Source: a virus. From it: 43,770 nt of DNA. Below, piece after piece: positions 1,364 through 23,359 of this stretch. A model generated the notes under the pieces. The model was not told the origin of the DNA, made no database searches, and was given only the letters and a program-made list of their open reading frames with translations. Position 1 is the stretch's first letter. Every line of letters begins with the position of its first letter. The stretch lies in IMG/VR virus record IMGVR_UViG_3300045988_064273; one strand, written 5' to 3'. The position numbers and the translations under genes are program-made.

Positions 1364-2086
1364 TTATGCGCAGCTACCGCATGCCCCGCAGGGTGCAGAC
1401 GAAGCCCAAGGGTTACAAGTGATGTAAGCCGGAGTCGGGCAAGGCCGCAGCTGAGATACGAGGTAATTGTTCTGCGCAGCCTGCGAAGCCGCAAGCTTGA
1501 GGTTCTGGTTCTCGGTCTGCAAATCCTGCATCTTGCTGTTGACGAGGAAATCGAGAATTGCCTTGCTGTTGCTGTTTGCGTTGTCGATAATGTCGCGTGT
1601 TGCGTTCTGCACAGTGTTGCGAGTATCGCAAGCCTGCGTTGCCATATCATAACGCACCTGAGCAATTGCCGCGCGGTTCTCGCAGCAGCACTCCTGTGCC
1701 TGCATCTGCATTGCGTTCAGCTGCTGCATAAGTGCGGCCTGCTGATTGCAGCGCGACAGCTCGGAAGAGTAGAAGCCGTTTGTGACCGCCTGAGTGACAC
1801 CGGCGAAGCCGTTAAGCATTCCCGTGTTCATGGCATAGAAGCCGTCACACAGGCCGTTGTTAACGTTGTCAAGCTTTCGCTCGATGTTTGCAAAGTCGGA
1901 AGTCAGAACGTATCCGTCCATCACTCCGCCATTGTTACCGCCCCAGCCGTTGCCGCCCCAGCCGAAAAGCACGATGAAAAAGAGGATTATCCACCATCCA
2001 TCACCGCCAAAACCGCCGAAGCCGCCGTTTGCTGAGGTTGGTGCAACCGGCATGGTCATTACCGGCGCATCAGAAGAAATCGCCAT
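1364..2086 (-). CDS. Membrane-anchored protein (240 aa) with a Gly/Trp-rich TM N-terminus, Q/N-rich coiled coil and Cys-rich C-terminus
   Basis: GGFGGFGGDGWWIILFFIVLFGWGGNGWGG, then ECCCENR and CGACGSCA. SD AAAGGAAA upstream. Confidence 0.65.
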   Translation of the reverse strand: MAISSDAPVMTMPVAPTSANGGFGGFGGDGWWIILFFIVLFGWGGNGWGGNNGGVMDGYVLTSDFANIERKLDNVNNGLCDGFYAMNTGMLNGFAGVTQAVTNGFYSSELSRCNQQAALMQQLNAMQMQAQECCCENRAAIAQVRYDMATQACDTRNTVQNATRDIIDNANSNSKAILDFLVNSKMQDLQTENQNLKLAASQAAQNNYLVSQLRPCPTPAYITCNPWASSAPCGACGSCA

Positions 2087-6329: not shown

Positions 6330-8072
6330 TTAGCCGTACACCCAGCATATCTGCCCGTTTACAGTCGGCGTCGATTCCGCACTTGCAAAATACTGATTGC
6401 GCAGTGCAGGCGTTCCGACCGCTACACCGTCGGTCGCGTACTTCGCCTTGTTGACGGTTTGACTTGCTATGTTCGATGTGGTGATAGCCGTGGATTTGTC
6501 CTGCTTTGTGTCTTGCAGGTTTTTGTCGGCTGATATCCACGTATACCCCGTAGCCGCCGCCGCTGTGCAGTGATAAACAAGCTTTGCCGCCGTGTCGATG
6601 TAGGTTTGGCCGACTACACCGACGGTCGATGTCGTTGGCGGCGCGGTGCCGATGATGGGCTGAGGTAGATCGTCAAGCGCCGCCTTTACGCCTCCCGAAG
6701 TTATCGGGTTTGTGCTGCCTGCCGTGGGTGCTGTGTCGAATGTCAAAGCGTTCTGCTTTCCGTTCCACGCCGTCCTCTCCGCGGCGGTAATGTGCTTAGC
6801 TGTGTTTTGCGCGTGGGTATTCAGATTGTCCTGTACGGTCTCTGCCGCGCCCTGCGCGTCCGCTCCGACCATTGCGGCGGTGTAGTCGCCCGTCTGGGGC
6901 GCAACAGCTCCGGAGCGCCCGTTGAAGCTTGAAACACCGCCTCCGGCAACTCCCTGTGCGGCCATAGCCCAATACTTGGCGTTGTTCGTGTCCTCGCCGG
7001 TTCGCGTGCCTGTGCCGCCGACTGCCCAGCTCTCGGACAGCTTGCTGCTCGCCTGTGCGCTTTGTGCACTCGCTCCGGCGCTCTGTGCGCTCCCCGCCGC
7101 CGCGCTCTTGGCGCTCTCTGCGTCTGTCTTGGCGCTCTGTGCGGAAGTATTCGCGGCCTCGGCATCTGCTTTCGCGGTCTGCGCCGAGGTGTTTGCAGTC
7201 TCGGCCTTGCTCTGCGCCGTCTGTGCCGCTGCTTTTGCCGACTCTGCGGCGGATTTTGCCGACTGCGCGGAAGCATTCGCGCTCTCGGCGCTTGCCCCTG
7301 CCGTGACCGCCGCTGCTTTCGCGCTCTCTGCGGCTGCCTTTGCGCTCTGTGCCGCCTGAGCCGCGGTCTGAGCCGCCGTGGCCTTTTCTGTGGCCGTCTG
7401 AACGCTCTGTGCGCTTGCAGTCTCGCTGGCCGCTGCCGATGCAGCCGACTCTGCCGCCGCTGATGCCGAGCCGGAAGCCGATGCTGCCGCGCTTTCTGCT
7501 GCGGTCTGTGCGCTCTCCGCTTTGCCTTGGGCAGTCTCGGCCTTGCTCTGCGCGGTTTCCGCTTTGCCCTGTGCGGTCTCGGCTGCTGCCTGTGCCGTCT
7601 CCGCTGCTGCCTGCGCATCCTCGGCTTTGCCCTGTGCGGTTTCTGCCGCTGTCTGCGCGTCCTTTGCCGCCTGTGCCGACTGTGCCGCCGCCGACTGCAC
7701 CTGCGCCCAGATGGGCAGTGTGCCGGTCGATACGTCCTCATATCCCTCATAGCCCTTGCGTATCTTGCCGACCGTCGCCCACACCGTAGGTATCGCGACC
7801 GTGTTGGCGTTGTCTGCGCCGTACACGCCGACCATAAGTATCTCGTCGCTTTTCGCAAGACATTCCTGCGGAATGGAGCAGACGTTGTTTTCCCAATACG
7901 AATCGAGCACGACCTTTGTAACGTCGCCTGCCGTGAATATCGCGGTTCTGCTTATTCCCGAATGCCAATCGGCTGAAAACTCGAATTTTATCTTTGCATT
8001 TATCATGCCGCTGGTCAAGGTTTCGTTTTCCGTCACCGTCGCCAGCGCTTTGCCGATCATGATTGTTGTCAA
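6330..8072 (-). CDS. Tail fibre protein with a ~210-aa Ala-rich heptad (AETAQGK-type) shaft
   Basis: Long low-complexity helix plus SFNGRSGAV..GDYTA, a common fibre motif. Start is TTG 8072 (SD AGGAGG, 8-nt spacer) or ATG 8060; the ORF extends to 8150. Confidence 0.7.
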   Translation of the reverse strand: MTTIMIGKALATVTENETLTSGMINAKIKFEFSADWHSGISRTAIFTAGDVTKVVLDSYWENNVCSIPQECLAKSDEILMVGVYGADNANTVAIPTVWATVGKIRKGYEGYEDVSTGTLPIWAQVQSAAAQSAQAAKDAQTAAETAQGKAEDAQAAAETAQAAAETAQGKAETAQSKAETAQGKAESAQTAAESAAASASGSASAAAESAASAAASETASAQSVQTATEKATAAQTAAQAAQSAKAAAESAKAAAVTAGASAESANASAQSAKSAAESAKAAAQTAQSKAETANTSAQTAKADAEAANTSAQSAKTDAESAKSAAAGSAQSAGASAQSAQASSKLSESWAVGGTGTRTGEDTNNAKYWAMAAQGVAGGGVSSFNGRSGAVAPQTGDYTAAMVGADAQGAAETVQDNLNTHAQNTAKHITAAERTAWNGKQNALTFDTAPTAGSTNPITSGGVKAALDDLPQPIIGTAPPTTSTVGVVGQTYIDTAAKLVYHCTAAAATGYTWISADKNLQDTKQDKSTAITTSNIASQTVNKAKYATDGVAVGTPALRNQYFASAESTPTVNGQICWVYG

Positions 8073-8107
8073 AAGGCTTTTCCTCCTTTTTCGCTTCTTG
8101 ATTTCAG

Positions 8108-8145
8108 CATAACAAAAGAAGGCAGGGCTTATTAAGCCCCACCTT
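8108..8145 (-). terminator. Rho-independent terminator after the giant gene
   Basis: - strand AAGGTGGGGCTT-aat-AAGCCCTGCCTT (12 bp including 2 G-U pairs) followed by CTTTTGTTAT. Confidence 0.65.
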
Positions 8146-8163
8146 CGCATGTTTTTTAACTTT
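8133..8163 (-). repeat. Late-junction element, copy a (AAAGTTAAAAAA-CATGCG-AAGGTGGGGCTTA)
   Basis: Shares an A-tract, 6 nt and AAGGTGGGGCT(G/T)A with 23019-23050 and 27232-27262. Confidence 0.6.
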
Positions 8164-11100
8164 CGTCGTTCTCTTTGCGCTTATAATATTCCTGCGCATG
8201 GTCGATTATCCCCTGCGCCGGGTTTGAACTCTTATAGGCCGCCATTTGCCAATCGTAAACCTTGTCGTACTCGTTGTTGACCTCGTACTTGGCGATTTGG
8301 TCTGCGTATTTGTATACATAACTGAGCATGTATGCCTTTTCGGCATCGGATGCGCGAGAATATGCGCTGCTGTTTATTATCTTTTTTGCCAGATCATAAG
8401 AGGTTCGTCCCCTGACCGTTGCATACTTCACATATTCCTCAGCCGTCAAAAATTCGCCGTTGATTTTTGTTTTTACAGCCGCGCGACCGGGATATACGCC
8501 GGTTTCGCCCAGATCATAAAGCCGTTTGAGCTCGCCGTCTATCTCGGTGCTGCGCTCCTTCTTGACGTATGCCGGATTTACAAAGTTGTTGAGCACCCTC
8601 TCAAACAGGTTGCCGGTTTCCTCTGTACGTCCCCATGCGTCAATGTACGGTATCTGGCTGAAATCATAAAACGGTATCTTGTTGGCGATCTTGCCCCACA
8701 TATATTGCAGCTCTGAGCCGACATTGCTGTTGCGGTCAATATACGTTGTTTCTCGCTGATTTTCTCCAAACGCTCTTTCGGCCTGCCCGAACAGCGTCGG
8801 GAAATACTGTGATATGTAGTTTGTCGCCATGCTCGTTACGATTTTGAACGAACCCTGTCCTTGCTTTATGTAGGCAAGGTTATCAAACAGATCGTTGACG
8901 CTTTGAAGCATTGACATTTCAAACATCGGCGTGCTGAGGCTCATGACGGAACTCATAAGGTTCTGAACAAAGCCGTTATCCTCGCTTTTGCCGCTGAGCG
9001 AATTATACAGTTCAACGCCCACGAATAGCGGCATGCTTTCCGGCGCGAGCCAGTCAAGCGTGATGCTTAGACCGCCTATGTTAAGCGCATAGTTTTGACT
9101 TCCGCCCAGCTCGTCAAACTTGTTTTGTTTATCGTCGTCTCCGGGACTGCCGCTGAATAATCCCCACGATGCCAGAAGAATACCCAATCCAACAAGCGCA
9201 GTGCCAGTCAGCCCGGCTGAAACGTCGTCGATAAACTGTGCCGGTGACATTCCGTTTTCTACATCGCCGTTTACATACGCCTTGACTTTCTTCGTGTCAA
9301 CGGCGAGCGACTTTATAAGCCCTACGGGCGAGTATTCCACCGCTCTCACGAGTATGTTTGCCGGTGTTTTTTTGAACGGCAAAACACCCTCTATCAGCGC
9401 GGAAGCGATCTTGTTATCGACCTTGCCGAGCCTGCTGACCATTGCCGAAAATCTGTTTGTGTCGCGGTAAGTCGCTTTCTGGGCTTCCTTTACCGCAACG
9501 GTCTGAGCTTTTATTATCGTGCTTTCGGGTACCTTGCCGGTGTTGAGCTGTTCGGCGGTTATGCCGTTTGCCTTGTACCATTTCGCGAGCGCGTTGGCGT
9601 ATGCAGGTTTACAAAACCATGCGTCCTCCGCGTCAAGCAGGTTTGAATTGCCCTTGCGTGCCGCCTCAAGGATTTTGGTTTTGTAAATCGTCCTTTTCTT
9701 GTCTATGCCCTGGAATGTATCGACATACTTGCCGCCCGAGAGTATAGTCTCCTGCATCGCTTCATAATCGGTCATTGCATACTTTATAAGTGCCACGTCA
9801 TTTGCGTTATTGCGGTTGAGCATGGCTTTGCTGCGCTCTATGCCTCCGTTCACTTTGCTGTCGGCGACATTTTCAAGGCCGTATGCTATGGTGTTTTTGA
9901 CTGCCCTGACCGGCACGAAAAATGCGTTGCCCACGATGTTTCTGACATGTGTACGAGGATTGCCCAGCATTGCGAGGTATCTGAAATTGTTGAGCTTTTC
10001 ATACCATGTCGCGTCTATCTGCTGTGCTACGCTCTGCTCGATTTTCGCCCATGCGGTCTTTATGCCATCCTCGTCGCCGCTTCTGAGTGCTTTACCGTAC
10101 TCGTCATACAGCACCTTGTCAACGTGTATATCCGCTTTGTTGTCCTTGTATTTCTCGTTAAGGTCTTCCTCTATAGTCTCAACGGACTTTGCGGCAAGAT
10201 ACAGTTTGCATTCGGGAGAGAGCTTGTTGAGTATGCGCATCGCCTGCAAAGACTGCGCCGTATTCGTCGAGTTTTTCACCATAAGTGAAGCAATATCCAG
10301 CGCGGTTGCATAATCTCCGCTGTTGACGGCGTTATTGTACAGAGCAATACCCATAACGGTATTGTCCTTCGATACCTTACCGGCATTTATCTGTGCCTTG
10401 TAATCGGCAAGCGCCTGTTCCCAGCCGTTAGCCTCTATCGTGATCTCGGCTTTTTTGAGCGCTGCCTCGTCGGAATAGGCTATGTGTGAGAATTTGCCCT
10501 GTGCCGCGTCCTCGCGTAGTGCGTCGGAAAACTCTGCCGGGGTAACGCCGCTGTTTGCGAGTGTGGAAACATGCTTGCTCGTGAGCTTGCCGTTCAGATC
10601 TTCCTTGGGTATCTCCTGCGGCGCTCTGTGCTGCTGCTCGGCAAGGTTTGCTTCCTGCTCTCGGCTTATCGGATGCAGCGCGTTGTTGCCCTTGCCCTGA
10701 GCCTCAGTTACCCAGCGCTCGCCTCTTGTTTCCTCGCCCGTGAACTCTGCCGAAGCCGCGCCCATGCCTTCGGGCAGCGAATTTTCTGCCGTTCTATCCT
10801 TTACCCTCGTAAGGACATTGTCCAAAGCCTTGATATTGACATAATCGCTGAGTTTTCTGTGTTCCTCTGCATACTTTCTGCTAAGCAGGGTAAAACGATT
10901 TCGGGCTGTCGCTATGGCGTTTTTGTCACCGCTGCTCTCTGCCGTCAACACTTCCTGACGCGCCGCGTCGAGCTTTTCGGCAATGCCGCTGACCTTGTCA
11001 TACTGGCGCTTATAGTCCTTTATAAGGCCGCGCTCGTTCTCGTTTGCTGCGTCCTCGTTTGTCGCCTGAGCAAGCATGGTTTCATTCTGCCGCCGCAGCT

Positions 11101-14100
11101 CGGTAATGCTCTCCGGCTCTCGGGAAAAATGCGCATCCGGCACGTCATTTGCGATCTTCATTCGGGCTGCATCGTCTCCGGCTCTGTATTCTTCGACGGC
11201 ATTTATTCCTGCTTCTTTAAGTGCCTTGCGCAGCGTATCCGACGATGTGTCGGGGATAATGACCTTGCGTATCTCGTCGAAGCCGACCACGCGTTCAGGC
11301 TTTGCCTCGAAGATGTTGACCGGCATATTATTAACGTCAAACAGCAGCGCAACTATATCGCTCGCCATTTTATCGGTAAGCGGATAGTTATACTTCTTGA
11401 AAAGCGCTTTCACGTTCGCGGGGCTAACATATTTAAGCTCCGTTGCCTCCATAAACACTTCGCCTATAGAGTCCAATTCCATAAGCTCGTTACTGTAGCC
11501 GCTGTGGGGAACGAGGTTATAAATGTCGTGCATGAGCTCGGAAAGCCTGCTGTCAAGCGCATCGGATATTTGGCTTGCTTCCTCCGCTGTCAGGTGCTTC
11601 AGGCGTCCTTCAAGCTTGTGCATATCTTCGACGCTCTTGAAGCGCTCGGCAGTACCTGCACGCAGACTTTTAACGCCGTGGAAGCCCATAACGTTTCGTG
11701 AGTTTCCGTCGCCCTGCGAAGCCATTGCCTTTACTATGCCGTCAAGTGTATTCGGATAATGCGTAGCCTTGAAGCTTCGTCTATTTCCGCTTGAAGTGTA
11801 ATAATCTTTGTTGTTATAAAAACCGCTGTCCTTTACTGCGTCGCCGTACAGGTCATTGAGCCACTTAATATATTCGCCGCTGTCAACGGCTTTTCTTATA
11901 GCAATGTTTGTCGCGTCAATATCGACTTCGGTTTTTCGGGTCTCAGCACCATCCTTGAGATATTTACGCGCATTGGTTGCTTCCTTGATAAGCTCTGCCG
12001 GTTTCATTGCATCAACTACGGATTTTGCCGTTTTCGCATCAATTCCGTCTTTGGTGTAATACTGCTCGAACGCCGCTTTAAGCGCATCTCCGTGCTTTGC
12101 AAACCATGCCTTTCGCGCAGCGAATGGAGCTTCATTATGTTTTGCAGCCATGTCGTTGAGAACATCCGCGCCGAGCGTGTTTATCAGCGCATCATATACC
12201 TCGATCTGATTATCCGTAAGCCGCGTTATCGTTTCGGTTTTCACCGATTCAACAGGCGTTCTGCCGGTGTCAGCAAGGTATATCTGCATCATCCGCGTGT
12301 CATCGGCAAATTTATCTATTAGCCCCTCCACGCCGCCGTATTTCGTGAGTGTGTCATCAAGGTAATTGGCAGACTCATATAACGGACTCACAAAATCATG
12401 ACCATGTTTTTTCTCAAGCTCGTAATATTTGCGTCGTATTCTCTGAGCCGCCTTTTCGTTTGCCTCGTATTCCATGCGCGGGAAAAGCGGAGTCCATGCA
12501 TCTGCTGAGTAAACGGTGTTGCGCCTGTCAAACTTCGGGTCAACTGTTTCCTTGCCGAAAACGACGGTGATATTGCCGAAATTCGTGTGCGGTATATCGC
12601 TTTTTGTTATTGCGATACTCGGCATCGGAAAACCGCCGAGTTTGAGCGTTTTCAGAAGCTTTGTCTCGTCAAGATTGTGCAGCGCGATAAGATTTTTCTT
12701 CTGCTCTATCGGCGCTTCCATGGAAAATTTCTTGACAGCGGCATCAGCAAATGATACACTACGGATGAGACCAAACTTGGTTCCCCCGAACGGCGTAGAG
12801 CGCCCTAAGGCATTGAACCATGCTTTGGTTTCTTTTTTATTCTCTCCGAGGTAAAGGATATTGCTGTCGTTTAAAAGTTTATCTAAATTGTGAGAGCGTG
12901 AGCCCACACTTCTTATTTTGTTAACAAGCGTAATGCTGTTACGCCTCTTTGTAGAATTAACGCGCAATGCAACTACTATAGGGTTACCATTCGCATCAAA
13001 TACCTGACCAAAAACCATAACTGTATTGTCATATGATTCTGATATTGCAATAGGGTGCTGCAAAATCTCAGGTATTTGTTTAATAACAGATTTCGTGATT
13101 TCGCCTTTTTCAAGAAGCTGTTTTGCCGCCTTGCTTTGGTCGAACCAAATATCTGTATTTGGTATTCCTACTTTCAACAGCGGGTCAGAAACTCCGCCGA
13201 CTCTGAATGCACCGCCATGGTCTTTGCCGTCCCACTGGTCTATCTGTCTGGCAAAATACTTATCTTCTGCTTGCCGCGAGAACATAACCCCGCTCTTCGG
13301 CGGTGCTCTGCCTTTGTTCGCAGTCTCGGCGGTGTGCTTGCGGAAGCTCTCCTGTACCTTGCCGTAGTTTGCGCTGTCGTGCTCCGTTCCGGCAAAGATG
13401 TTTATCTTGCCCAGCGCGTCACAGCACATTTCCTCGAACGCCTCGGCCTCGCTTATCGTGTCGCCGTATGCGTGTCTGTAGACCTCAACAGCGCTGTTAA
13501 GCTCTTTCTCCGAGAGGTCTGAAAGCATAGCGCTGCGCAGCTCGTCAAGGCTTATATCGCCCTGTGCGATTGCCGCGTGCCCCATCTCGTGGCGCATTAT
13601 CTGCTCTGCGGATATGTCGGGATGGTCTGAACGCACCATAACGGTTTTGCTCTCGGTATCGACCATGCCTCTGAACTCGCCGCCGCTGTCCTTGATATTG
13701 CCGCCCTCGAAATATGTGACGTTATAGCCGTAGCTTTTTGCAAGCTCACGGCCTTTTTTCATGCTCTCGGTGTCCTCGCCGGAGTAGTAGACGTTTTCCT
13801 GCTCTACGCCGTTATAGACTACTTTTTGCTCAGTTTTGCCTTGAGCTGCGCTATAACCGCTTTGTCTGCCGCTATCTGTTCCGGCGTAAGCTTCGACTGT
13901 GCCTCTTTCCACTGAGGGTATTTGTCCTTCGGTATTCTGACCGTTAAGCCGTTGGCCGCTGTCGCGTAGACGTACTCCATTATTGTTTACCTCCTGTGTG
14001 TTTATCTGGTTGTTTACCTGTGTGCTTACATTATCACCCTGCGCCGCCGCATTGTCAACCGCCGCCTGAGTTGTAGATGCACCCATGTTATAGGCTATCT

Positions 14101-15994
14101 CCGCCTGTGCGCGGTTCAGAACGGGCACTTTGGTGAGCGACTCTTTGTTCGCGCCCTGCTGCCCCATCTGATACACAGCATCAAACGCCATTTCAAACGC
14201 CTCGGGAGACTCGACGGGATTTAAATTGTACACTCTGCTCACAAACTCAGGCGTTGCATCTATCTTTGCCGCAACATTGTTTATGCTCTTGCTTACAGCT
14301 TCATTATTTGAAACGTTTGTGTTAACAGGCGCGGACATCTCCGAGCGTTGAGCAACATAATTCCTCAACTCGGATAACTGCTGTTCTCTGTTCAGCGCAG
14401 CATGCGGCAACGCCGGGCTTTCCTTATTGAGTTGTGTTTCCGGCGCCGACTGAACAGCAGTACCCTCATTTACCTGCGCTTTCTCGTTAGCTTGTGCAAG
14501 CCTATAAAGCTCGTTGCCGCTAAGCTGTTTGCCGTTATTTAGTTTTTCGTCGTATTTCCTTGCAAGCTCATAGCTTTTAGTGCCTCGTTCGCTTTCCAGT
14601 CCTTCGTCAACTAACTCTCGCTGAGAATTGCCGTATAATCTTTGCCCGGTTTCTCCGCGCTGCTTTGCTCTGTATGCCGCATTTATGCCGGTTGTAGGGA
14701 GACCGAGCAAAGTCGAAACGACCGCCGCGCCGGTAGCTTCCTCAAGCGCCGCCTTTGGATTGATTATAGAGTTTTCATCGTTTGCGTCATACAGCGGCAC
14801 GTCAGAGTATATACTCTTTAATCCTCTGCCCAAAATGCCCTGTATGATTTCCTCGCTTGCTTCTTCCCCGATGCTCTTAGCGTAGTTGAGAAGCAGACTT
14901 TTGTCGCCCTTATTAACAGCTTTTTTCACCCATTCGGGCAACTTCTGCAAGCCGCCAAGTTCGGAGACGCCGCCAAGTTCAGTAACCGCATTTCCTGCGC
15001 CATTCAGCGCAGCATAAACAAGCGCCTGCAAGTCATCCGCACCGTCTTGTTTAGCCTCGTCATAGCTTGAACCAAATGACGAGCCAAATATAACTTGCGC
15101 ATCCGGGCGCGTCGCAAACTGCTTTATCGCGTTCTGAGCTATAGCTCCGGTCTGGCTGAGTTTTGAGGCAGCCTGCCCAATCCGCGCAGCATTAGCAAGC
15201 GCGGCAGTGTCGACAGCAGTTGCAAGACCGCCGCCCATAAGAGTTGACGCCATCATTGCCGCCGCTTCGGAGGTCGCCGTGCTGTACTTATAAAGGGGGT
15301 TATCTGCATACGCAGCGTCGCGCTTTTGGCGGTATTCTATTTCTTTCTCACCGAGTTTATTAAAGGCTTTGATAGGGTTATCTTTAAAATTCAAGCCTTT
15401 AATTCCTAATGCATTATCCCCTGCAGCCTCTGCTATGCGGTCGCCGCCAAACATATACCAAAGCTCTTGCAAAGGGCCTCCGTCCTCGTCACCGAGGCTG
15501 GTAACAACATCAGCAGTGGAAACCAAGCTTTTGCTGAAATCGGTTAGGCCTACGTCAATGCCTCTGAGTATCTTTTTATACCACTCAATATCGCCTGCCG
15601 ATATCGCGTCGCTGCCTTTGGTGAGCTTTTCACCGCCTCCGGCCTGTTGCAGATATGCGTATCCGGGATTGTTGCGCTTAACTGCATCGCCATCCCACAC
15701 GCTGATATAGCCGTTGCCCTTGCCGGTTTCAATTTTCGAAGCCGCAGCTTTGCCTTTCGTTCCATCGCCGTATACTTTGCTATATACATATCCGGGATTG
15801 TTGCGCAAAAGTGCTTTTGACTTCTGCTCATCATCATAGGTTTTTGCTGCCGCACCGCTTTTTATTCTTGCAATATACTCACTGCGCCAATCTGAATTGG
15901 TGCTCTTGCTTTTTTCGCTGCTTGCATTGTCACCAACCCAGTTTTCATTAGCTTTCAGTTTCGCAATATATTTTTTTATGCTATTTGAAGCCAT
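8156..15994 (-). CDS. Giant multidomain virion protein (2612 aa) with a zincin HEMGH motif, probably a polyvalent ejected/internal protein
   Basis: One uninterrupted ORF. HEMGH is encoded at 13577-13591. TM segment GLTGTALVGLGILLASWGLF lies near nt 9150-9220. NNPGY(V/A)Y occurs twice at the N-terminus. Confidence 0.85.
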   Translation of the reverse strand: MASNSIKKYIAKLKANENWVGDNASSEKSKSTNSDWRSEYIARIKSGAAAKTYDDEQKSKALLRNNPGYVYSKVYGDGTKGKAAASKIETGKGNGYISVWDGDAVKRNNPGYAYLQQAGGGEKLTKGSDAISAGDIEWYKKILRGIDVGLTDFSKSLVSTADVVTSLGDEDGGPLQELWYMFGGDRIAEAAGDNALGIKGLNFKDNPIKAFNKLGEKEIEYRQKRDAAYADNPLYKYSTATSEAAAMMASTLMGGGLATAVDTAALANAARIGQAASKLSQTGAIAQNAIKQFATRPDAQVIFGSSFGSSYDEAKQDGADDLQALVYAALNGAGNAVTELGGVSELGGLQKLPEWVKKAVNKGDKSLLLNYAKSIGEEASEEIIQGILGRGLKSIYSDVPLYDANDENSIINPKAALEEATGAAVVSTLLGLPTTGINAAYRAKQRGETGQRLYGNSQRELVDEGLESERGTKSYELARKYDEKLNNGKQLSGNELYRLAQANEKAQVNEGTAVQSAPETQLNKESPALPHAALNREQQLSELRNYVAQRSEMSAPVNTNVSNNEAVSKSINNVAAKIDATPEFVSRVYNLNPVESPEAFEMAFDAVYQMGQQGANKESLTKVPVLNRAQAEIAYNMGASTTQAAVDNAAAQGDNVSTQVNNQINTQEVNNNGVRLRDSGQRLNGQNTEGQIPSVERGTVEAYAGTDSGRQSGYSAAQGKTEQKVVYNGVEQENVYYSGEDTESMKKGRELAKSYGYNVTYFEGGNIKDSGGEFRGMVDTESKTVMVRSDHPDISAEQIMRHEMGHAAIAQGDISLDELRSAMLSDLSEKELNSAVEVYRHAYGDTISEAEAFEEMCCDALGKINIFAGTEHDSANYGKVQESFRKHTAETANKGRAPPKSGVMFSRQAEDKYFARQIDQWDGKDHGGAFRVGGVSDPLLKVGIPNTDIWFDQSKAAKQLLEKGEITKSVIKQIPEILQHPIAISESYDNTVMVFGQVFDANGNPIVVALRVNSTKRRNSITLVNKIRSVGSRSHNLDKLLNDSNILYLGENKKETKAWFNALGRSTPFGGTKFGLIRSVSFADAAVKKFSMEAPIEQKKNLIALHNLDETKLLKTLKLGGFPMPSIAITKSDIPHTNFGNITVVFGKETVDPKFDRRNTVYSADAWTPLFPRMEYEANEKAAQRIRRKYYELEKKHGHDFVSPLYESANYLDDTLTKYGGVEGLIDKFADDTRMMQIYLADTGRTPVESVKTETITRLTDNQIEVYDALINTLGADVLNDMAAKHNEAPFAARKAWFAKHGDALKAAFEQYYTKDGIDAKTAKSVVDAMKPAELIKEATNARKYLKDGAETRKTEVDIDATNIAIRKAVDSGEYIKWLNDLYGDAVKDSGFYNNKDYYTSSGNRRSFKATHYPNTLDGIVKAMASQGDGNSRNVMGFHGVKSLRAGTAERFKSVEDMHKLEGRLKHLTAEEASQISDALDSRLSELMHDIYNLVPHSGYSNELMELDSIGEVFMEATELKYVSPANVKALFKKYNYPLTDKMASDIVALLFDVNNMPVNIFEAKPERVVGFDEIRKVIIPDTSSDTLRKALKEAGINAVEEYRAGDDAARMKIANDVPDAHFSREPESITELRRQNETMLAQATNEDAANENERGLIKDYKRQYDKVSGIAEKLDAARQEVLTAESSGDKNAIATARNRFTLLSRKYAEEHRKLSDYVNIKALDNVLTRVKDRTAENSLPEGMGAASAEFTGEETRGERWVTEAQGKGNNALHPISREQEANLAEQQHRAPQEIPKEDLNGKLTSKHVSTLANSGVTPAEFSDALREDAAQGKFSHIAYSDEAALKKAEITIEANGWEQALADYKAQINAGKVSKDNTVMGIALYNNAVNSGDYATALDIASLMVKNSTNTAQSLQAMRILNKLSPECKLYLAAKSVETIEEDLNEKYKDNKADIHVDKVLYDEYGKALRSGDEDGIKTAWAKIEQSVAQQIDATWYEKLNNFRYLAMLGNPRTHVRNIVGNAFFVPVRAVKNTIAYGLENVADSKVNGGIERSKAMLNRNNANDVALIKYAMTDYEAMQETILSGGKYVDTFQGIDKKRTIYKTKILEAARKGNSNLLDAEDAWFCKPAYANALAKWYKANGITAEQLNTGKVPESTIIKAQTVAVKEAQKATYRDTNRFSAMVSRLGKVDNKIASALIEGVLPFKKTPANILVRAVEYSPVGLIKSLAVDTKKVKAYVNGDVENGMSPAQFIDDVSAGLTGTALVGLGILLASWGLFSGSPGDDDKQNKFDELGGSQNYALNIGGLSITLDWLAPESMPLFVGVELYNSLSGKSEDNGFVQNLMSSVMSLSTPMFEMSMLQSVNDLFDNLAYIKQGQGSFKIVTSMATNYISQYFPTLFGQAERAFGENQRETTYIDRNSNVGSELQYMWGKIANKIPFYDFSQIPYIDAWGRTEETGNLFERVLNNFVNPAYVKKERSTEIDGELKRLYDLGETGVYPGRAAVKTKINGEFLTAEEYVKYATVRGRTSYDLAKKIINSSAYSRASDAEKAYMLSYVYKYADQIAKYEVNNEYDKVYDWQMAAYKSSNPAQGIIDHAQEYYKRKENDES

Positions 15995-16014: not shown

Positions 16015-17133
16015 TTACATTTTCAAACCAACATAAGCTGCCAGAGTATCGGCCTGTTTTTTGCTGATTTTGCCCTCGCTGATCATTTCAACAAGTTGGT
16101 TTTGCGCCCATGTCGTACCGTTTGCCTGTTTGCCGTAGTAGAGCGTGTCTCTCAGGCCGCGATATGTAGCATCGTCAACTCCGGTCTCGCTAAAAGTGCT
16201 GGATGAGCTTTTTTTGCTGCTCCCCCCTCCGCCGCTCCTGCCGCTTGCACTCTGCGCCGCCGCCTGAGCCGCAAGCTGTGCGTAATAGTTTTTAAGTGTC
16301 TGCACATACTCATCGCTCAATCCGGAACGCAAAACGAGATCGGCAGAAGGCGAGCCACCGACCTCAAGTATTGCTTTGACCTGATCTGCCGCCGAATTCA
16401 TTTGAGACTGTAGCTGTGCATAATTTATCTGTGCTCTATCATAGTCCTGTGCATCCTTTGCCATGTACATGTTATACTGATCTTTAAGCTCGTCGCCCTC
16501 ATCCTGATACCGCGAATATGCCAGCTGGTAAAGCTCCGGCACAACGCCGTTTAGCTTCTGCAAATACGCGTCATACTGTTGCTGACCGACTGCCTGACTG
16601 TAGCTTGAACCGTAGCCGCCCGTAAGAGCTGCCGCCTGACCCATTGTGTCCTGCATGGCAAGTCTGCCCTGATTAATGTACTGTTCCCTGTACAGCTTAT
16701 ACAAAGGGTCTGTCTCGGTGTCGTAGCTGAAGCTTTCTCTGTTGAGGAGTTTGTTGAAAAGCTCATTTATCTGTGTATCATACTGCGGAGTATAGGTGTA
16801 ATTGGTCTTAGCGTTTGGAAGCCCATCACCGTCTATTTTGGCATTGCGCTGCTGCTCGTATTGAGACGCTGCGGTATAATCGCCTTTACCAAATGCCTGA
16901 TATATCTTCTTCATATAATCCGTGCCGCTATCGTATTCAACACCGTTGTATTCTTTGGGAAGGTACGAAGAATAATTGTTGGTCTGGGCATAATTAAGCG
17001 CTTCACCTTGAATTTTCGCGTTTCGCGCCTGCTCATATTTTGCTGCTGCCGTATAGTTGCCAGCGGCAACAGCATCGTTTATTTTTTTCTGATAATCGGT
17101 ATCCCTATCATATGTCGTTTTTTTAATTGCCAT
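16015..17133 (-). CDS. Virion-associated protein (372 aa) with a duplicated TDY..KKI...G.YTAA..YEQ.RNAKI.G repeat
   Basis: ORF with SD AAGGAAGG. Two ~50-aa internal repeats and a Ser/Gly linker. Confidence 0.65.
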   Translation of the reverse strand: MAIKKTTYDRDTDYQKKINDAVAAGNYTAAAKYEQARNAKIQGEALNYAQTNNYSSYLPKEYNGVEYDSGTDYMKKIYQAFGKGDYTAASQYEQQRNAKIDGDGLPNAKTNYTYTPQYDTQINELFNKLLNRESFSYDTETDPLYKLYREQYINQGRLAMQDTMGQAAALTGGYGSSYSQAVGQQQYDAYLQKLNGVVPELYQLAYSRYQDEGDELKDQYNMYMAKDAQDYDRAQINYAQLQSQMNSAADQVKAILEVGGSPSADLVLRSGLSDEYVQTLKNYYAQLAAQAAAQSASGRSGGGGSSKKSSSSTFSETGVDDATYRGLRDTLYYGKQANGTTWAQNQLVEMISEGKISKKQADTLAAYVGLKM

Positions 17134-20547: not shown

Positions 20548-21699
20548 TTACTTGTTTTCCTCGTCAGTCGCGGAATACGAGCTGACGGACATCACGCGGA
20601 GTACGCGCTCAGGGTAAAGGATAGTTGCGCCGTTGGTCTCAAACTTGTAACCGATGGTGCTGAACTGGTTAAGAGGACCGCCGATTTCGTCCTTGTCATG
20701 AGCGATCATCTCAAGGCCGCCGCCCTCGGGGTCAATAATGCCAAAGCCGTCCTTGCCGAAGAAGTAAGTCGCATAAGTAACGCCGTCGGACTTATTCTTG
20801 TAGGTGGTGCTGCCGGAATACTTGTAGCTCGCGCCGAGAATAGGTGCATAGGTATCCTCAATGAAGCGGCAGCCGTGCAGCTCGCCGATCTCACCGTTGA
20901 AGATCTCGGAGGTAGCTGCATACTTATGCACTTCAATCCATTCCTTGCTCTGGCGCAGGTCATACGCAACAGAGGGATGGATAACAGCATAGTATTTGCC
21001 GTTTATCTTGGGCACACGGTCTTTCTTGAGCTTGGTAACGGCCTTGTTTACCATGGTGGGGGTAAGTAGTGCCCAGCCGTCAGGAGTCGAGCTGCCTCCG
21101 CTGGAAGTAGTGCCGCCTGCGCCCATGGTTGCCGGGGAAGTAGGAGTAGAAACTTTAGTGCCGTCCTCGGTGACGTTATCGCAGTACATTACGTTAGTGC
21201 CGACAAGCAGCGCATCACGGATAAGGGTTTCCTGAGTAGCCGCAGCGGATGCGCCCATTTCCTCGGTCGCTGCAAGAATGACATCGTCATATGCGCGCAT
21301 CTCGAGCTTATCGGTGATAGAGGTGTAAGTGCCGTACTGCGTGATAGATGCCGTCAGCTTGGTTGCACCAAACTGCTGACCGGTGGGGATAACGCCTTCC
21401 TTAAGCTCAGTCGCCTTTGCAAAGGTGTTAAACTTACGCCATTCAACAGTGGTGCCGCCGTTCTTGGGCAGTCTCTGCTTGCGGCCAAACTGCGCATAGA
21501 ACATCTCAACTCTGGCATTTTCGAGCAGCTCAGTGTCATAGAACGTCTTAAGTTCGGGTGCCATCGTGTTAGTGGCAGGGCTGGCCGCGACGGCCTCGCC
21601 GGTGTATGCGTTGGTGTAGTTGGAGGTGCCGTTGCTTACAAGGGTGTTAACAACGGTGCCTGCATCTGCAAAAATCTGAATCCAATTAAAATTGATCAT
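20548..21699 (-). CDS. Major capsid protein (HK97 fold, N4-gp56-like by eye)
   Basis: TFYDTELLENARVEMFYAQFGRKQRLPKNGGTTVEWRKF. Start moved to MINFNWIQIFADAG (SD AAAGGAAA); the ORF extends to 21741. Confidence 0.85.
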   Translation of the reverse strand: MINFNWIQIFADAGTVVNTLVSNGTSNYTNAYTGEAVAASPATNTMAPELKTFYDTELLENARVEMFYAQFGRKQRLPKNGGTTVEWRKFNTFAKATELKEGVIPTGQQFGATKLTASITQYGTYTSITDKLEMRAYDDVILAATEEMGASAAATQETLIRDALLVGTNVMYCDNVTEDGTKVSTPTSPATMGAGGTTSSGGSSTPDGWALLTPTMVNKAVTKLKKDRVPKINGKYYAVIHPSVAYDLRQSKEWIEVHKYAATSEIFNGEIGELHGCRFIEDTYAPILGASYKYSGSTTYKNKSDGVTYATYFFGKDGFGIIDPEGGGLEMIAHDKDEIGGPLNQFSTIGYKFETNGATILYPERVLRVMSVSSYSATDEENK

Positions 21700-21744
21700 A
21701 TCGTTTCCTTTCATGGTCATAGGCCACGCGGAAACGCTCAAGGC

Positions 21745-22758
21745 TTAAAACTGCCCGGGATATATCTTTTCACCCGATCTAATCCGGGCTTTCAACGCCT
21801 CTCTCTGTTCCCTCGTGGCGTTTCTGTAATCAAACGTCTGAATGGAAGCGTTAGAGGACTTGGGAACGCCGCCCTCACTCGGGCGCGATCTATTCGACTG
21901 CACAGCATTTGACACCTGCTGCACCGATGCTTTCAGCGCTGCCTGCCGTATGCTTTCCTTTATTTCATCACGATGCACAAGCTCATATGCATCTTCGAGG
22001 GAAAACATCAGGTCGGGCGCGGTCAAGCGTCGGAATGTAGGGTTGTCCAGCTCTTTCCGCAAATCAAAGTTGGGGTATTTCTTCTGAAGCTCAACGGCCT
22101 GCGCGTTCATCTTGCTCAGATGCTCCATAAGCTTCTGCTCGTTGATAAACTGCTGTTTCTGCGCTTCTGCTGCTCTTGCCACAGCCTCGGAGCGCTCGAG
22201 CTGCTTTGCTACCTCGGTCGATACACCCAATTCCATCGCACGGTCTTCGTAATACTCGTCATCATCCGCGACCGCTTTTGCGATTGCGTCATAATCTCCC
22301 GAGTCTACGCCGTACTTTTTGGATAGCAGCTGCAGCGCCGGAGCAAGCTTCTCAAGCCCCTCGGCGTCCGCCTTGTACTTTGTCTTTGCCGACGAGACTA
22401 CTTTCTGCATCTCCCGGTTATAGTCGGGGTCTGCCATGATTTCATCCCATGTAAGCCGCTTTGCTGTATCTTTAGTCTCTGCTGCCTCTATGGCTTCCTT
22501 TGGCGCAGCGGCGGCCTGCGCATCGGCTTTAGGCTGATTAACAGCCTTGCCATATTTCGCCCGTCCGAGTTTTTCCTTAGGCACTCCAAGCTCTGCGAGC
22601 CTGTCAGCCGTGGTTTTCGGTGCTGTCTGTTCGGCGGCAACAGACACATTAACGCCCGTGTTCTGCCCGGCGGCGGCAGATGTTTCGCCCGAAGTGGCTG
22701 CACCGCCATCGCCGGTACCGTCCGCGAATAGCTGCAACCAACTGAATTTGTTGTGCAT
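21745..22758 (-). CDS. Scaffolding protein (337 aa)
   Basis: Lies between the protease and capsid genes. Ala/Glu/Lys-rich and helical, with the same WLQLFAD N-terminal motif as the capsid. Confidence 0.7.
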   Translation of the reverse strand: MHNKFSWLQLFADGTGDGGAATSGETSAAAGQNTGVNVSVAAEQTAPKTTADRLAELGVPKEKLGRAKYGKAVNQPKADAQAAAAPKEAIEAAETKDTAKRLTWDEIMADPDYNREMQKVVSSAKTKYKADAEGLEKLAPALQLLSKKYGVDSGDYDAIAKAVADDDEYYEDRAMELGVSTEVAKQLERSEAVARAAEAQKQQFINEQKLMEHLSKMNAQAVELQKKYPNFDLRKELDNPTFRRLTAPDLMFSLEDAYELVHRDEIKESIRQAALKASVQQVSNAVQSNRSRPSEGGVPKSSNASIQTFDYRNATREQREALKARIRSGEKIYPGQF

Positions 22759-23014: not shown

Positions 23015-23359
23015 TTATGCTTTGCTTTCAGCCCCACCTTGCGCACTTTTTTTAGTTTCTGTGAAAATTTTTATGTATTCCGGGTATTCCTGCATCAGCA
23101 ACACAAAGCCCTTGACTATTACCGACATTTCAACGACCGCCACAGGGTCATATTCAGTCAGCTTTATTCGCGCTTTGCCGTCGGATATATCAATTTCCGT
23201 GATATCTTTGGAACTTTCCTGCAAAATAGCCGCTGCCGTGCGCACAAGGATTGTCGCAGCCGCGCATATCAAATCCTCGCCTTTGGGCGCAGACTGCGCA
23301 TGCCCTTCGATTTTTAATTCAAACGTGCTGCCGGTGCTGTTTACGCATACATTTATCAT
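23015..23359 (-). CDS. Prp-like (DUF464, ribosomal-processing cysteine protease family) protease
   Basis: ELKIEGHAQSAPKGEDLICAAATIL matches the GHA...G.D.(V/I)CA signature. 114 aa, between portal and scaffold. Confidence 0.8.
   Translation of the reverse strand: MINVCVNSTGSTFELKIEGHAQSAPKGEDLICAAATILVRTAAAILQESSKDITEIDISDGKARIKLTEYDPVAVVEMSVIVKGFVLLMQEYPEYIKIFTETKKSAQGGAESKA
23019..23050 (-). repeat. Late-junction element, copy b (GAAACTAAAAAAA-GTGCGC-AAGGTGGGGCTGA)
   Basis: Matches 27232-27262 with 1 mismatch and 1 indel over ~31 nt. Lies in the last codons of the Prp gene. Confidence 0.7.

Follow-up and report, generated by a model that had tools for sequence, protein, structure and literature searches.

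The window analysed here is the whole 43,770-nucleotide (nt) stretch of viral DNA in IMG/VR record IMGVR_UViG_3300045988_064273; all positions are those of this window, and residue numbers are those of the 2612-residue protein encoded by its giant gene. This gene is a single open reading frame (ORF) with an ATG start on the minus strand (8156..15994, 2612 codons and a stop), has a ribosome-binding site (GAGAGGTG) 6 nt 5' of the ATG and makes up 18% of the window. An earlier reading of the letters alone (the original prediction) had described one unbroken 7.8-kb frame of 2612 codons for a polyvalent protein. Both points hold: the frame lies where it was placed, and at least two distinct conflict or effector domains stand in one polypeptide, through Pfam matches to MuF_C and PBECR5 and a conserved zincin. 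The gene lies in a late, virion-gene neighbourhood, with portal, capsid and hub genes on one side and fibre genes on the other. It most likely encodes a modular protein of a known kind, that is, a polyvalent protein and homologue of internal virion protein D that carries cytoplasmic domains.

A BLAST map of the protein against the 119 homologues returned by a large protein search divides it into three blocks (N-block, residues 1 to ~900–915; middle, ~915–1618; C-block, ~1618–2612). The N-block is present in nearly all of these homologues and the C-block in ~97, the middle in only 11. In order, the protein consists of the N-block (residues 1–906), a MuF_C module (907–1091), a PBECR5 module (1092–1624) and the C-block (1625–2612). 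In many homologues the N-block is 95–100% identical and the C-block 96–99% identical, and the middle is unrelated.

The MuF_C module (12722..13276, minus strand) contains the Pfam MuF_C match (residues 957–1054, expectation value (E) 6.5e-15), which bears out a MuF-C-like segment picked out by eye at residues 940–1040 in the original prediction; MuF-C is classed as a PBECR-type predicted RNase domain by Iyer et al. (PMC5512222). Directly adjoining it, and missed by that prediction, is the PBECR5 module (11123..12721, minus strand), in which a much stronger Pfam match (PBECR5, residues 1088–1298, E 3.1e-63) is followed by an extension of ~320 residues. PBECR5 is a predicted nuclease of polyvalent proteins with the Barnase/EndoU/colicin-E5/RelE (BECR) fold. 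PHROG 22978 matches residues 884–1670, and a tblastn search with the whole protein found only the PBECR5 module (residues 1084–1650, in three phage records); megablast of the giant gene against phages gave no match.

At the DNA level the central region is an exchangeable cassette: the segment 11126..13294 (minus strand) has no similarity to a sister phage locus (L001), and its flanks there are 98–99% identical. Identity between the window and L001 is 99.7% in the head genes, 98.9% up to nt 13295 and 98.3% from nt 11125 downward; the right breakpoint (nt 11125) falls on the Ser codon of joint 3, one of three module borders described below, and the left (nt 13295) lies five codons before joint 1. 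Clustering of the middles of 113 proteins gives ~25 cassette types, in which the Pfam content varies from MuF_C with ART-PolyVal, and LPD3 with ART-PolyVal, to a SAM methyltransferase or PBECR3, several having no match. These comparisons show that near-identical sister phages exchange central enzyme modules.

The C-terminal core and internal virion protein D

The C-block (8159..11122, minus strand) begins with a coiled-coil lead-in, which is followed by a large helical module. It contains the single hydrophobic, transmembrane-like helix of the giant protein (residues 2257–2282, 9149..9226, minus strand), which is 19–26 residues long and the only segment above 1.5 on the Kyte–Doolittle scale. 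A transmembrane helix at about residues 2255–2280, followed by a conserved-looking region, had been anticipated in the original prediction, and the region after the helix is indeed highly conserved in the family. In scans with the whole protein, the C-block had no match in Pfam, PHROG or NCBIfam, and segment-wise searches of Pfam (E up to 10) and NCBIfam (E up to 1) gave nothing credible for either the N- or the C-block. An exhaustive HMMER search over 1.84 billion cluster representatives nevertheless found the C-block in 6784 proteins (50%-identity clusters, E ≤ 1e-3), which belong to prophages and phages. In all 150 listed matches, a core of ~790 residues lies at or near the C-terminus, and the proteins are mostly 1200–4250 residues long.

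The link to internal virion protein D emerged only from a tblastn search with a relaxed threshold (E ≤ 1) in which the query was the C-block by itself. Among 50,697 phage records, eight matched, seven of them annotated as internal virion protein (D) and one as hypothetical; all eight phages are T7-like or come from the same marine host groups. The matches comprise Pelagibacter phages HTVC041P (E 9e-5), Gjalp and Eyrgjafa (both 7e-4), an uncultured Mediterranean phage (8e-4), Synechococcus phage S-TIP28, two Roseobacter CRP phages and Desulfovibrio phage ProddE. Profile comparison with hhalign strengthened the relationship: the family alignment matched HTVC041P gp36 with a probability of 94% (E 1.1e-7), and an alignment of five of these proteins with a probability of 99.05% (E 2e-18) over 498 columns, corresponding to residues 1988–2551 of the giant protein (8342..10033, minus strand). 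In the paired alignment, MLGNPRTHVRNIVGN stands opposite LLSNPKTHLINMSSN, LDAEDAWF opposite LTAEDEFF and EGVLPFKKTPANIL opposite KQILPFTRTPVNLM. The shared motifs NP(R/K)TH..N, ED.(W/F)F and LPF..TP.N are followed by the hydrophobic helix, whose aligned counterpart in internal virion protein D is the conserved ATGxxL...AAEGxxTG helix. Judged from these sequences, the match is not coiled-coil noise.

Two further searches point the same way. PHROG 6651, ‘internal virion protein’, is the top match of the core fragment (E 1.8e-4) and matches HTVC041P gp36 at 5e-46. In the reverse direction, a hidden Markov model (HMM) of the five marine proteins picked out only the giant ORF among the window's ORFs of at least 80 residues (E 8e-12, the next being 0.27). 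Gene position agrees as well. In the matched phages, the gene for internal virion protein D lies directly upstream of the tail fibre gene; where the genes upstream of it are annotated, they encode tubular tail protein B (HTVC041P) or internal virion protein C (ProddE), which is the slot of T7 gene 16. The giant gene occupies the position that is typical of PHROG 6651, past the tail hub and before the fibre, with one candidate per genome. The internal virion protein D family also contains Syn5 gene 45 and P-SSP7 gene 16. By profile homology, then, the core at residues 1988–2551 is related to the gene-16-slot internal virion protein D of marine T7-like phages, and the envelope-penetration function that was a guess in the original prediction now has homology behind it.

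Structure-based and other searches with the C-block were less informative. The AlphaFold2 (AF2) model of the block is all-helical and unreliable (predicted local distance difference test score (pLDDT) 55), and Foldseek searches with it were uninformative. Against PDB sequences, the family profile gave chance matches only, for example to SAMHD1 (E 0.07), and the single protein gave none; there was no match to the C-block in 72,556 plasmids.

The core has an alternative. In a subgroup of homologues (P0094–P0116), an N-block that is 95–99% identical, together with the first 16 residues of the C-block after the joint, is followed by an unrelated block of ~1270 residues, here called type B. This block is matched by neither the HMM of the window-type (type A) C-block nor the marine internal virion protein D profile, nor by any annotated phage gene. 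Like the C-block of the window protein, it has exactly one hydrophobic helix, which lies ~291 residues from the C-terminus as against 355 in the window protein. The internal-virion-protein-D-like core is therefore replaceable, since the N-block also occurs with the type B block. Published work describes T7-type internal virion protein D as alternating with proteins of the P22 gp16 type (PMC4819975); by analogy, the alternation of types A and B recalls this, as an unproven parallel.

The zincin-like domain of the N-block and the joints between modules

The N-block (13277..15994, minus strand), as delimited by the BLAST block map and alignment, is mostly helical in a low-confidence AF2 model and ends in a zincin. 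Near its start, the motif NNPGY(V/A)Y had been reported as duplicated; both copies, NNPGYVY (residues 65–71, 15782..15802) and NNPGYAY (residues 108–114, 15653..15673; both minus strand), are kept in the family consensus. The mean pLDDT of the N-block is 47.5, the exception being residues ~720–890 (13325..13837, minus strand), which reach 75–85 and form a zincin-like metallopeptidase domain with a beta sheet, a catalytic helix and a helix bearing E855 and D859. The zinc-binding and catalytic motif HEMGH (residues 802–806, 13577..13591, minus strand) is where the original prediction had located it, in exactly the context that was quoted, and is the sole HExxH of the protein. H802, E803, H806, E855 and D859 are invariant across 33 homologues, and H791, at the end of a strand, is nearly so. 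HEMGH is therefore not a chance occurrence, given that the zincin residues are invariant although the N-blocks of these 33 homologues are only 25% identical at the far end.

In the AF2 model, the domain consists of a helix and a small sheet (strands within residues 758–788), HEMGH in helix 796–811 and E855 in helix 849–861. The model and the alignment together thus give the layout of polyvalent-protein zincins, in which the HExxH helix follows a three-stranded sheet and a Glu is supplied by a later helix. The same layout, including a conserved His at a strand end in a phage clade, is described for polyvalent-protein metallopeptidases in PMC5512222. In Foldseek searches with the N-block, the best matches were zincins, namely anthrax lethal factor (E 0.2, probability 0.69) and IrrE, both below threshold (E 0.2–1.2).

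The distribution of the motif among 148 diverse proteins that share the core suggests which part of the protein the zincin belongs to. HExxH occurs 105 times in these proteins against 2 expected from shuffling, and its presence depends on the length of sequence upstream of the core: 1 of 34 proteins with fewer than 800 upstream residues has it, against 61 of 74 with at least 1200, in a test that is weak because longer proteins simply hold more domains. From these fractions, the zincin goes with the cargo and not with the core; its absence from relatives with short N-terminal regions places it outside the penetration core. Its tie to the cargo appears to fit a role in processing or as an effector better than wall digestion, as far as this weak test goes; most plausibly, it would process the polyprotein or act on a host protein.

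A joint motif, (K/R/M/H)(F/Y)S(R/L/M)E(P), is found at every module border of the giant protein family. In the window protein, it takes the form VM-FS-RQ between N-block and MuF_C module (joint 1, residues 904–908, 13271..13285), KK-FS-ME between MuF_C and PBECR5 modules (joint 2, residues 1089–1093, 12716..12730) and AH-FS-RE between cargo and C-block (joint 3, residues 1622–1626, 11117..11131; all minus strand). Matches to the pattern [KRMHNG][FYW]S[RLMI]E number 242 in 120 proteins, all at borders, against 7.2 expected from shuffles. Module tails before the joint (...RSSSENVNEKFS, ...SNPDIRYS, ...KIANDVPNVHFS, ...GRAPPKSGxMYS) and module heads after it (REPESITELRRQ in the C-block, LEPVKPIQPKN in the methyltransferase, MEAPIEQKKNLI in PBECR5, RQAEDKYFARQI in MuF_C and REVNGKKIAWIE) combine freely, as judged from the unique contexts listed.

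Across 79 distinct DNA contexts, the joint is written with all six Ser codons, four codons for the aromatic residue and many for Arg and Leu, which indicates that the motif is kept at the protein level through synonymous codon changes. Of the Ser codons at joints, 89% are TCN, against 48% in the rest of the same genes, a bias that also fits common descent. The flanks of the joints (residues 891–915 and the start of the C-block) have pLDDT values below 50 and are flexible in the AF2 model. Outside the close family, the motif is only ~2–4 fold enriched and control patterns are enriched too; among the 148 wider relatives, 35 zincin-bearing proteins do without it. Across these distant relatives, the association of motif and zincin was uninformative: the motif is restricted by lineage, and the control patterns show enrichment as well. 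A joint-like MFSLE in the phage's scaffold protein was set aside as a chance occurrence, since it is not conserved in scaffold homologues. Conservation at the protein level, flexible flanks and closeness to the zincin favour a functional site; the joints may instead be seams inherited by descent at which recombinants stay functional.

The phage and its gene neighbourhood

The structural genes all lie on the minus strand and encode, in order, the small and large terminase subunits, a P22-type portal, a Prp cysteine protease, a scaffold, the major capsid protein and a 124-residue protein, followed by a 608-residue protein (PHROG 511), a 278-residue fibre-tip protein (Gp10_C), a 372-residue protein and the giant gene. 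Beyond the giant gene lie a 606-residue fibre with Ala/Gln-rich repeats, a DUF6273 protein and, farther on, a CHAP lysin. Scans of the giant protein and of ten structural proteins encoded nearby gave no match to a tape-measure, tube or sheath family, in line with the original prediction. Its description of the capsid as N4-gp56-like fared less well: the major capsid protein has similarity at E ~1e-3 to 401-residue capsid proteins (PDB 9d7z and 9e99), so that the label is at best weakly supported.

In L001 the gene order is the same, with a holin and an integrase in addition. The region around that integrase matches the right end of the window with 100% identity, from which it follows that the phage is temperate. 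Relatives of the C-block are encoded by Oscillospirales and other Clostridia; examples are Pseudoflavonifractor, Lawsonibacter, Dysosmobacter, Oscillibacter and Acutalibacteraceae, and the cultured strains among them include Pseudoflavonifractor sp. Marseille-P3106, Lawsonibacter celer NSJ-47 and L. hominis NSJ-51. The phage is a temperate, tube-less podovirus-type phage of gut Clostridia (Oscillospirales) with a P22-type portal.

The succession of a hub-like 608-residue protein, the 278- and 372-residue proteins, the giant protein and a fibre mirrors that of tubular tail protein B, internal virion proteins and fibre in T7-like phages, and the order around the giant gene is kept in distant related loci. 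The gene directly upstream, for the 372-residue protein (16015..17133, minus strand), is also kept there, at 31–57% identity; the protein matches no family in any library searched, and searches with it and with the 608-residue protein returned only unannotated gut-phage relatives. It may be a second internal virion protein, a candidacy that we base on inference. Between the window and L001 (16015-19832 against L001 6022-9980, minus strand), the 608-residue hub-like protein is 49% identical and the 372-residue protein 44%, and the gene for the 278-residue fibre-tip protein has no counterpart in L001, where the head genes and the N-block are 99.7–100% identical. This divergence of tail genes amid near-identical head genes indicates that they, too, are swapped as cassettes.

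Several other features of the neighbourhood are of interest in themselves. The Prp-type cysteine protease (23015-23359, minus strand) is recognised by Pfam Peptidase_Prp (E 1.7e-14). The leader of the scaffold (22725-22758, minus strand) reads MHNKFSWLQLFA followed by DGTG, and that of the major capsid protein (21670-21700, minus strand) ends ...NFNWIQIFA followed by DAGT. Both leaders end in a hydrophobic-Q-hydrophobic-F-A motif, and the scaffold leader is conserved in 34 related loci; these ends resemble the L27/Prp cleavage site that Staphylococcus phage 80alpha uses. The 606-residue fibre-like protein (6330-8150, minus strand) has a long Ala/Gln/Glu-rich low-complexity stretch with repeats of the type ...AETAQGKAE..., which raise the G+C content of this 2-kb stretch to 59%, from ~50% elsewhere. 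A 240-residue protein (1364-2086, minus strand) combines a Gly/Trp-rich hydrophobic N-terminal part (GGFGGFGGDGWWIILFFIVLFGWGGNGWGGNNGG) with a Cys-rich C-terminus, and L001 has a gene of the same length at the same place.

Interpretation and comparison with known systems

We consider it likely that the giant ORF encodes a modular internal virion (ejection) protein of this phage. By analogy with internal virion protein D, the protein would be packed in the capsid and, after adsorption, would pass out by way of portal and tail, either before the DNA or along with it; the helical core of the protein and its one hydrophobic helix would help to bridge wall and membrane. The central modules would then enter the cytoplasm and serve as first-strike effectors directed at host defences or host RNA, acting early on host RNA, proteins or DNA. 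The predicted cargo of this phage is the pair of BECR-fold RNase-type domains, MuF_C and PBECR5, and that of near-identical sister phages an ADP-ribosyltransferase, a methyltransferase, PBECR3, LPD3 or other modules. The pattern by which the family shuffles its modules at (F/Y)S(R/L)E(P) joints is observed, and what the joints do in this exchange is what we infer.

Such a protein would have several precedents. Homologues of internal virion protein D have been noted to ‘variably host ... domains destined for the cytoplasm’, as in N4 gp50, H66 gp60 and VT2-Sakai orf71 (PMC4819975, Hardies et al.). Iyer et al. 2017 (PMC5512222) predicted that polyvalent proteins whose genes adjoin virion genes are injected and that the metallopeptidases in them autoprocess. 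In podovirus phi24B, proteomics of virions detected the 2811-residue polyvalent gp47, which includes MuF-C; the reconstruction did not show it, and a function as an ejection protein was proposed (bioRxiv 10.64898/2026.04.10.717836).

A number of observations weigh against this assignment. AF2 models neither block well (mean pLDDT 55 for the C-block and 47 for the N-block), and fold searches with the models gave no significant match. The zincin has no match in Pfam (residues 650–950, E up to 10, MPTase-PolyVal included), NCBIfam or PHROG. The same N-block is carried by the subgroup with the unrelated type B block. The phage has no cultured relative, its best portal match among isolates being Bacillus phage PK1 at 24% identity. 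Finally, for T7 gp16, the member that has been studied by experiment, no similarity was detected either with the C-block or with the marine profile (hhalign probability <1%), and the transfer of function therefore rests on the genomic slot, the annotation and the Syn5 and P-SSP7 relatives. The genes of P-SSP7 were themselves assigned by size and synteny, in agreement with the undetectable similarity to T7 gp16 (PMC4819975).

The assignment could be refined by supposing a self-cleaving polyprotein, in which the N-block zincin or the phage's Prp would cut the joints before packaging or after ejection and so free the RNase-type modules from the core bound to the membrane; we regard this as a tentative possibility. 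Speaking for it are the confinement of the joint to module borders, its persistence whichever of the six Ser codons, or of several Arg and Leu codons, is used, its flexible flanks, the location of joint 1 ~50 residues past E855 of the zincin, and the tracking of the zincin with cargo-bearing relatives. Moreover, there is a Prp protease among the phage's genes, the scaffold and capsid proteins have N-termini of the ...LQLFA-D type, and Iyer et al. (PMC5512222) proposed that such metallopeptidases autoprocess, P1 DdrB being a precedent. According to the same source, however, N4 virion RNA polymerase, ArdC and TraC1 travel unprocessed. What the joints share with the Prp site is no more than an aromatic and then a small residue; the weak enrichment of the motif outside the close family and the 35 zincin-bearing proteins that lack it also speak against cleavage, and the skew towards TCN codons would suit a seam that is merely tolerated by descent. 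More speculative still is the specific version in which the joints are cleavage sites read by the protein's own zincin, which would make the giant protein a self-processing delivery vehicle: an injection-type core would cross the envelope, each joint-bounded module would then be freed as an enzyme, and modules ending in ...(F/Y)S and starting with (R/L)E... would be insertable by recombination.

Other explanations depart further from an internal virion protein with cytoplasmic cargo. That the zincin is a wall-degrading virion enzyme, which opens the thick Gram-positive peptidoglycan for the short tail and leaves the rest of the protein as a conduit, seems unlikely, even though internal virion proteins often have muralytic domains (PMC4819975), the phi24B authors propose a wall role for the gp47 metallopeptidase (bioRxiv 10.64898/2026.04.10.717836) and no other virion-borne wall hydrolase turned up in the structural genes scanned. 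The nearest folds, both weak, are the protein-cleaving zincins named above; the core works without a zincin, given that HExxH is found in just one of the 34 relatives with short upstream regions; and the phage has a separate CHAP lysin. To our knowledge, the peptidoglycan peptidases of phages (M15, M23, CHAP, NlpC/P60) are not HExxH zincins. Swappable toxin-type modules, C-terminal or internal and predicted to be nucleases or ADP-ribosyltransferases, and a MuF-related domain also recall the MuF polymorphic toxins of temperate phages (PMC5576092) and could suggest a toxin secreted or delivered by contact by the lysogen against competing bacteria. We think this very improbable: the N-terminal MuF domain, C-terminal toxin and adjacent immunity gene by which Jamet et al. 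2017 define such toxins are not combined here, as Pfam finds no MuF N-terminal (Phage_Mu_F) domain and MuF_C is internal, and the cassette, being internal to the ORF, has no small immunity-like gene after it; what follows the ORF is the gene for the 606-residue fibre. The giant gene, moreover, lies inside a late structural operon, and its C-terminal core is homologous to internal virion proteins. Hardly credible, finally, is a tape-measure or other external tail protein, such as a central fibre, which would imply a long-tailed phage with tube genes that escaped notice. The size, helical content and hydrophobic segment of the protein and its place upstream of fibre-like genes would suit one, but Pfam and PHROG searches of the giant protein gave no tape-measure match at the thresholds used, a match that would have refuted the original prediction by its own terms, and no tube, sheath or chaperone family appeared in the structural module scanned. 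The portal is P22-type, the coding space from the capsid gene to the giant gene is too small for connectors, tube and chaperones, and cassette swaps between 99%-identical phages would make a tail ruler longer or shorter by hundreds of residues.

Polyvalent proteins (2017), internal virion protein D homologues with cytoplasmic enzymes (2016) and a virion-borne giant polyvalent podovirus protein (2026 preprint) are already known. What is new is the assignment of an unnamed and very large C-terminal module of Clostridia phages to the internal virion protein D family, together with a clean three-block layout with ~25 cargo cassettes, a universal joint motif and an alternative C-block. Through the link to the gene-16 slot, the largest gene of many human-gut phages acquires a function that can be tested, and the different enzyme cargos amid 98–100% identical flanks would show which weapons gut phages inject first. 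As a candidate processing site, the joints bear on whether polyvalent proteins are cut, and they mark a natural insertion point for engineering phage-delivered protein cargo. If true, self-processing would amount to natural plug-and-play protein injection across thousands of Clostridia prophage lineages.

The closest relatives by homology are the internal virion D proteins of T7-like Autographiviridae from marine and anaerobic hosts (PHROG 6651; HTVC041P gp36, S-TIP28 gp48, ProddE gp34, Syn5 gene 45 and P-SSP7 gene 16), which share ~500–560 residues with the window protein, including common motifs and the hydrophobic helix, a position between hub and fibre, and a helical nature throughout. They differ in being ~1200 residues long without recognised enzyme cargo, whereas the window protein has 2612 residues with the core as its last third; the N-terminal halves are unrelated. 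Their phages are lytic, encode an RNA polymerase and infect Gram-negative or cyanobacterial hosts, whereas the window phage is temperate and infects Clostridia. T7 gp16, which is ejected into the envelope, has the same genomic slot, is helical and falls in the size class of the core of the giant protein, but has no detectable sequence similarity, and its lytic transglycosylase domain was not found in the giant protein by Pfam.

Polyvalent proteins (PMC5512222) resemble the giant protein in their multiple conflict domains, location among virion genes and mosaic architectures of orthologues. By contrast, the conserved N- and C-blocks here have no Pfam or LPD assignment, and the zincin matches no Pfam model; the word ‘linker’ occurs nowhere in the text of that paper, and the joint motif does not appear in the passages considered. 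The proteins phi24B gp47 and VT2-Sakai orf71, the latter listed as an internal virion protein D homologue (PMC4819975), are the giant proteins of Stx podoviruses, at ~2800 residues close in size to the window protein and likewise from short-tailed temperate phages. The phi24B and window proteins both have a zincin followed ~150–200 residues later by MuF_C, and the zincin contexts are alike (V.V..D.PD......RHE..H); overall, direct comparison gave no significant similarity, the hhalign match being limited to the zincin (E 0.07). The other domains of phi24B gp47 are LPD5, LPD1 and LPD38, and its gene is at the genome end, not between hub and fibre. We also observed that the phi24B protein of 2807 residues (L085 29149-37572, vb_24B_48) has its zincin motif, RHEIIH, at about residue 1563, between LPD1 and MuF_C, where Pfam does not call it.

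Similarly large ORFs have been noted before in Clostridia: the Clostridium clostridioforme LM41 prophages phi1 and phi4 have 8-kb ORFs that take up ~20% of the genome and have some polyvalent similarity, and were noted as hypothetical (PMC11318856). In its three-part logic, the giant protein resembles coliphage N4 gp50, the virion RNA polymerase, in which an injection region, a central cytoplasmic enzyme and an encapsidation region are distinguished (PMC5512222) and the C-terminal domain is an internal virion protein D homologue (PMC4819975). The giant protein has no RNA polymerase domain by Pfam, PHROGs, NCBIfam or PDB sequence search; in place of the polymerase of N4 gp50, the cargo here consists of exchangeable RNase, ADP-ribosyltransferase or methyltransferase modules.

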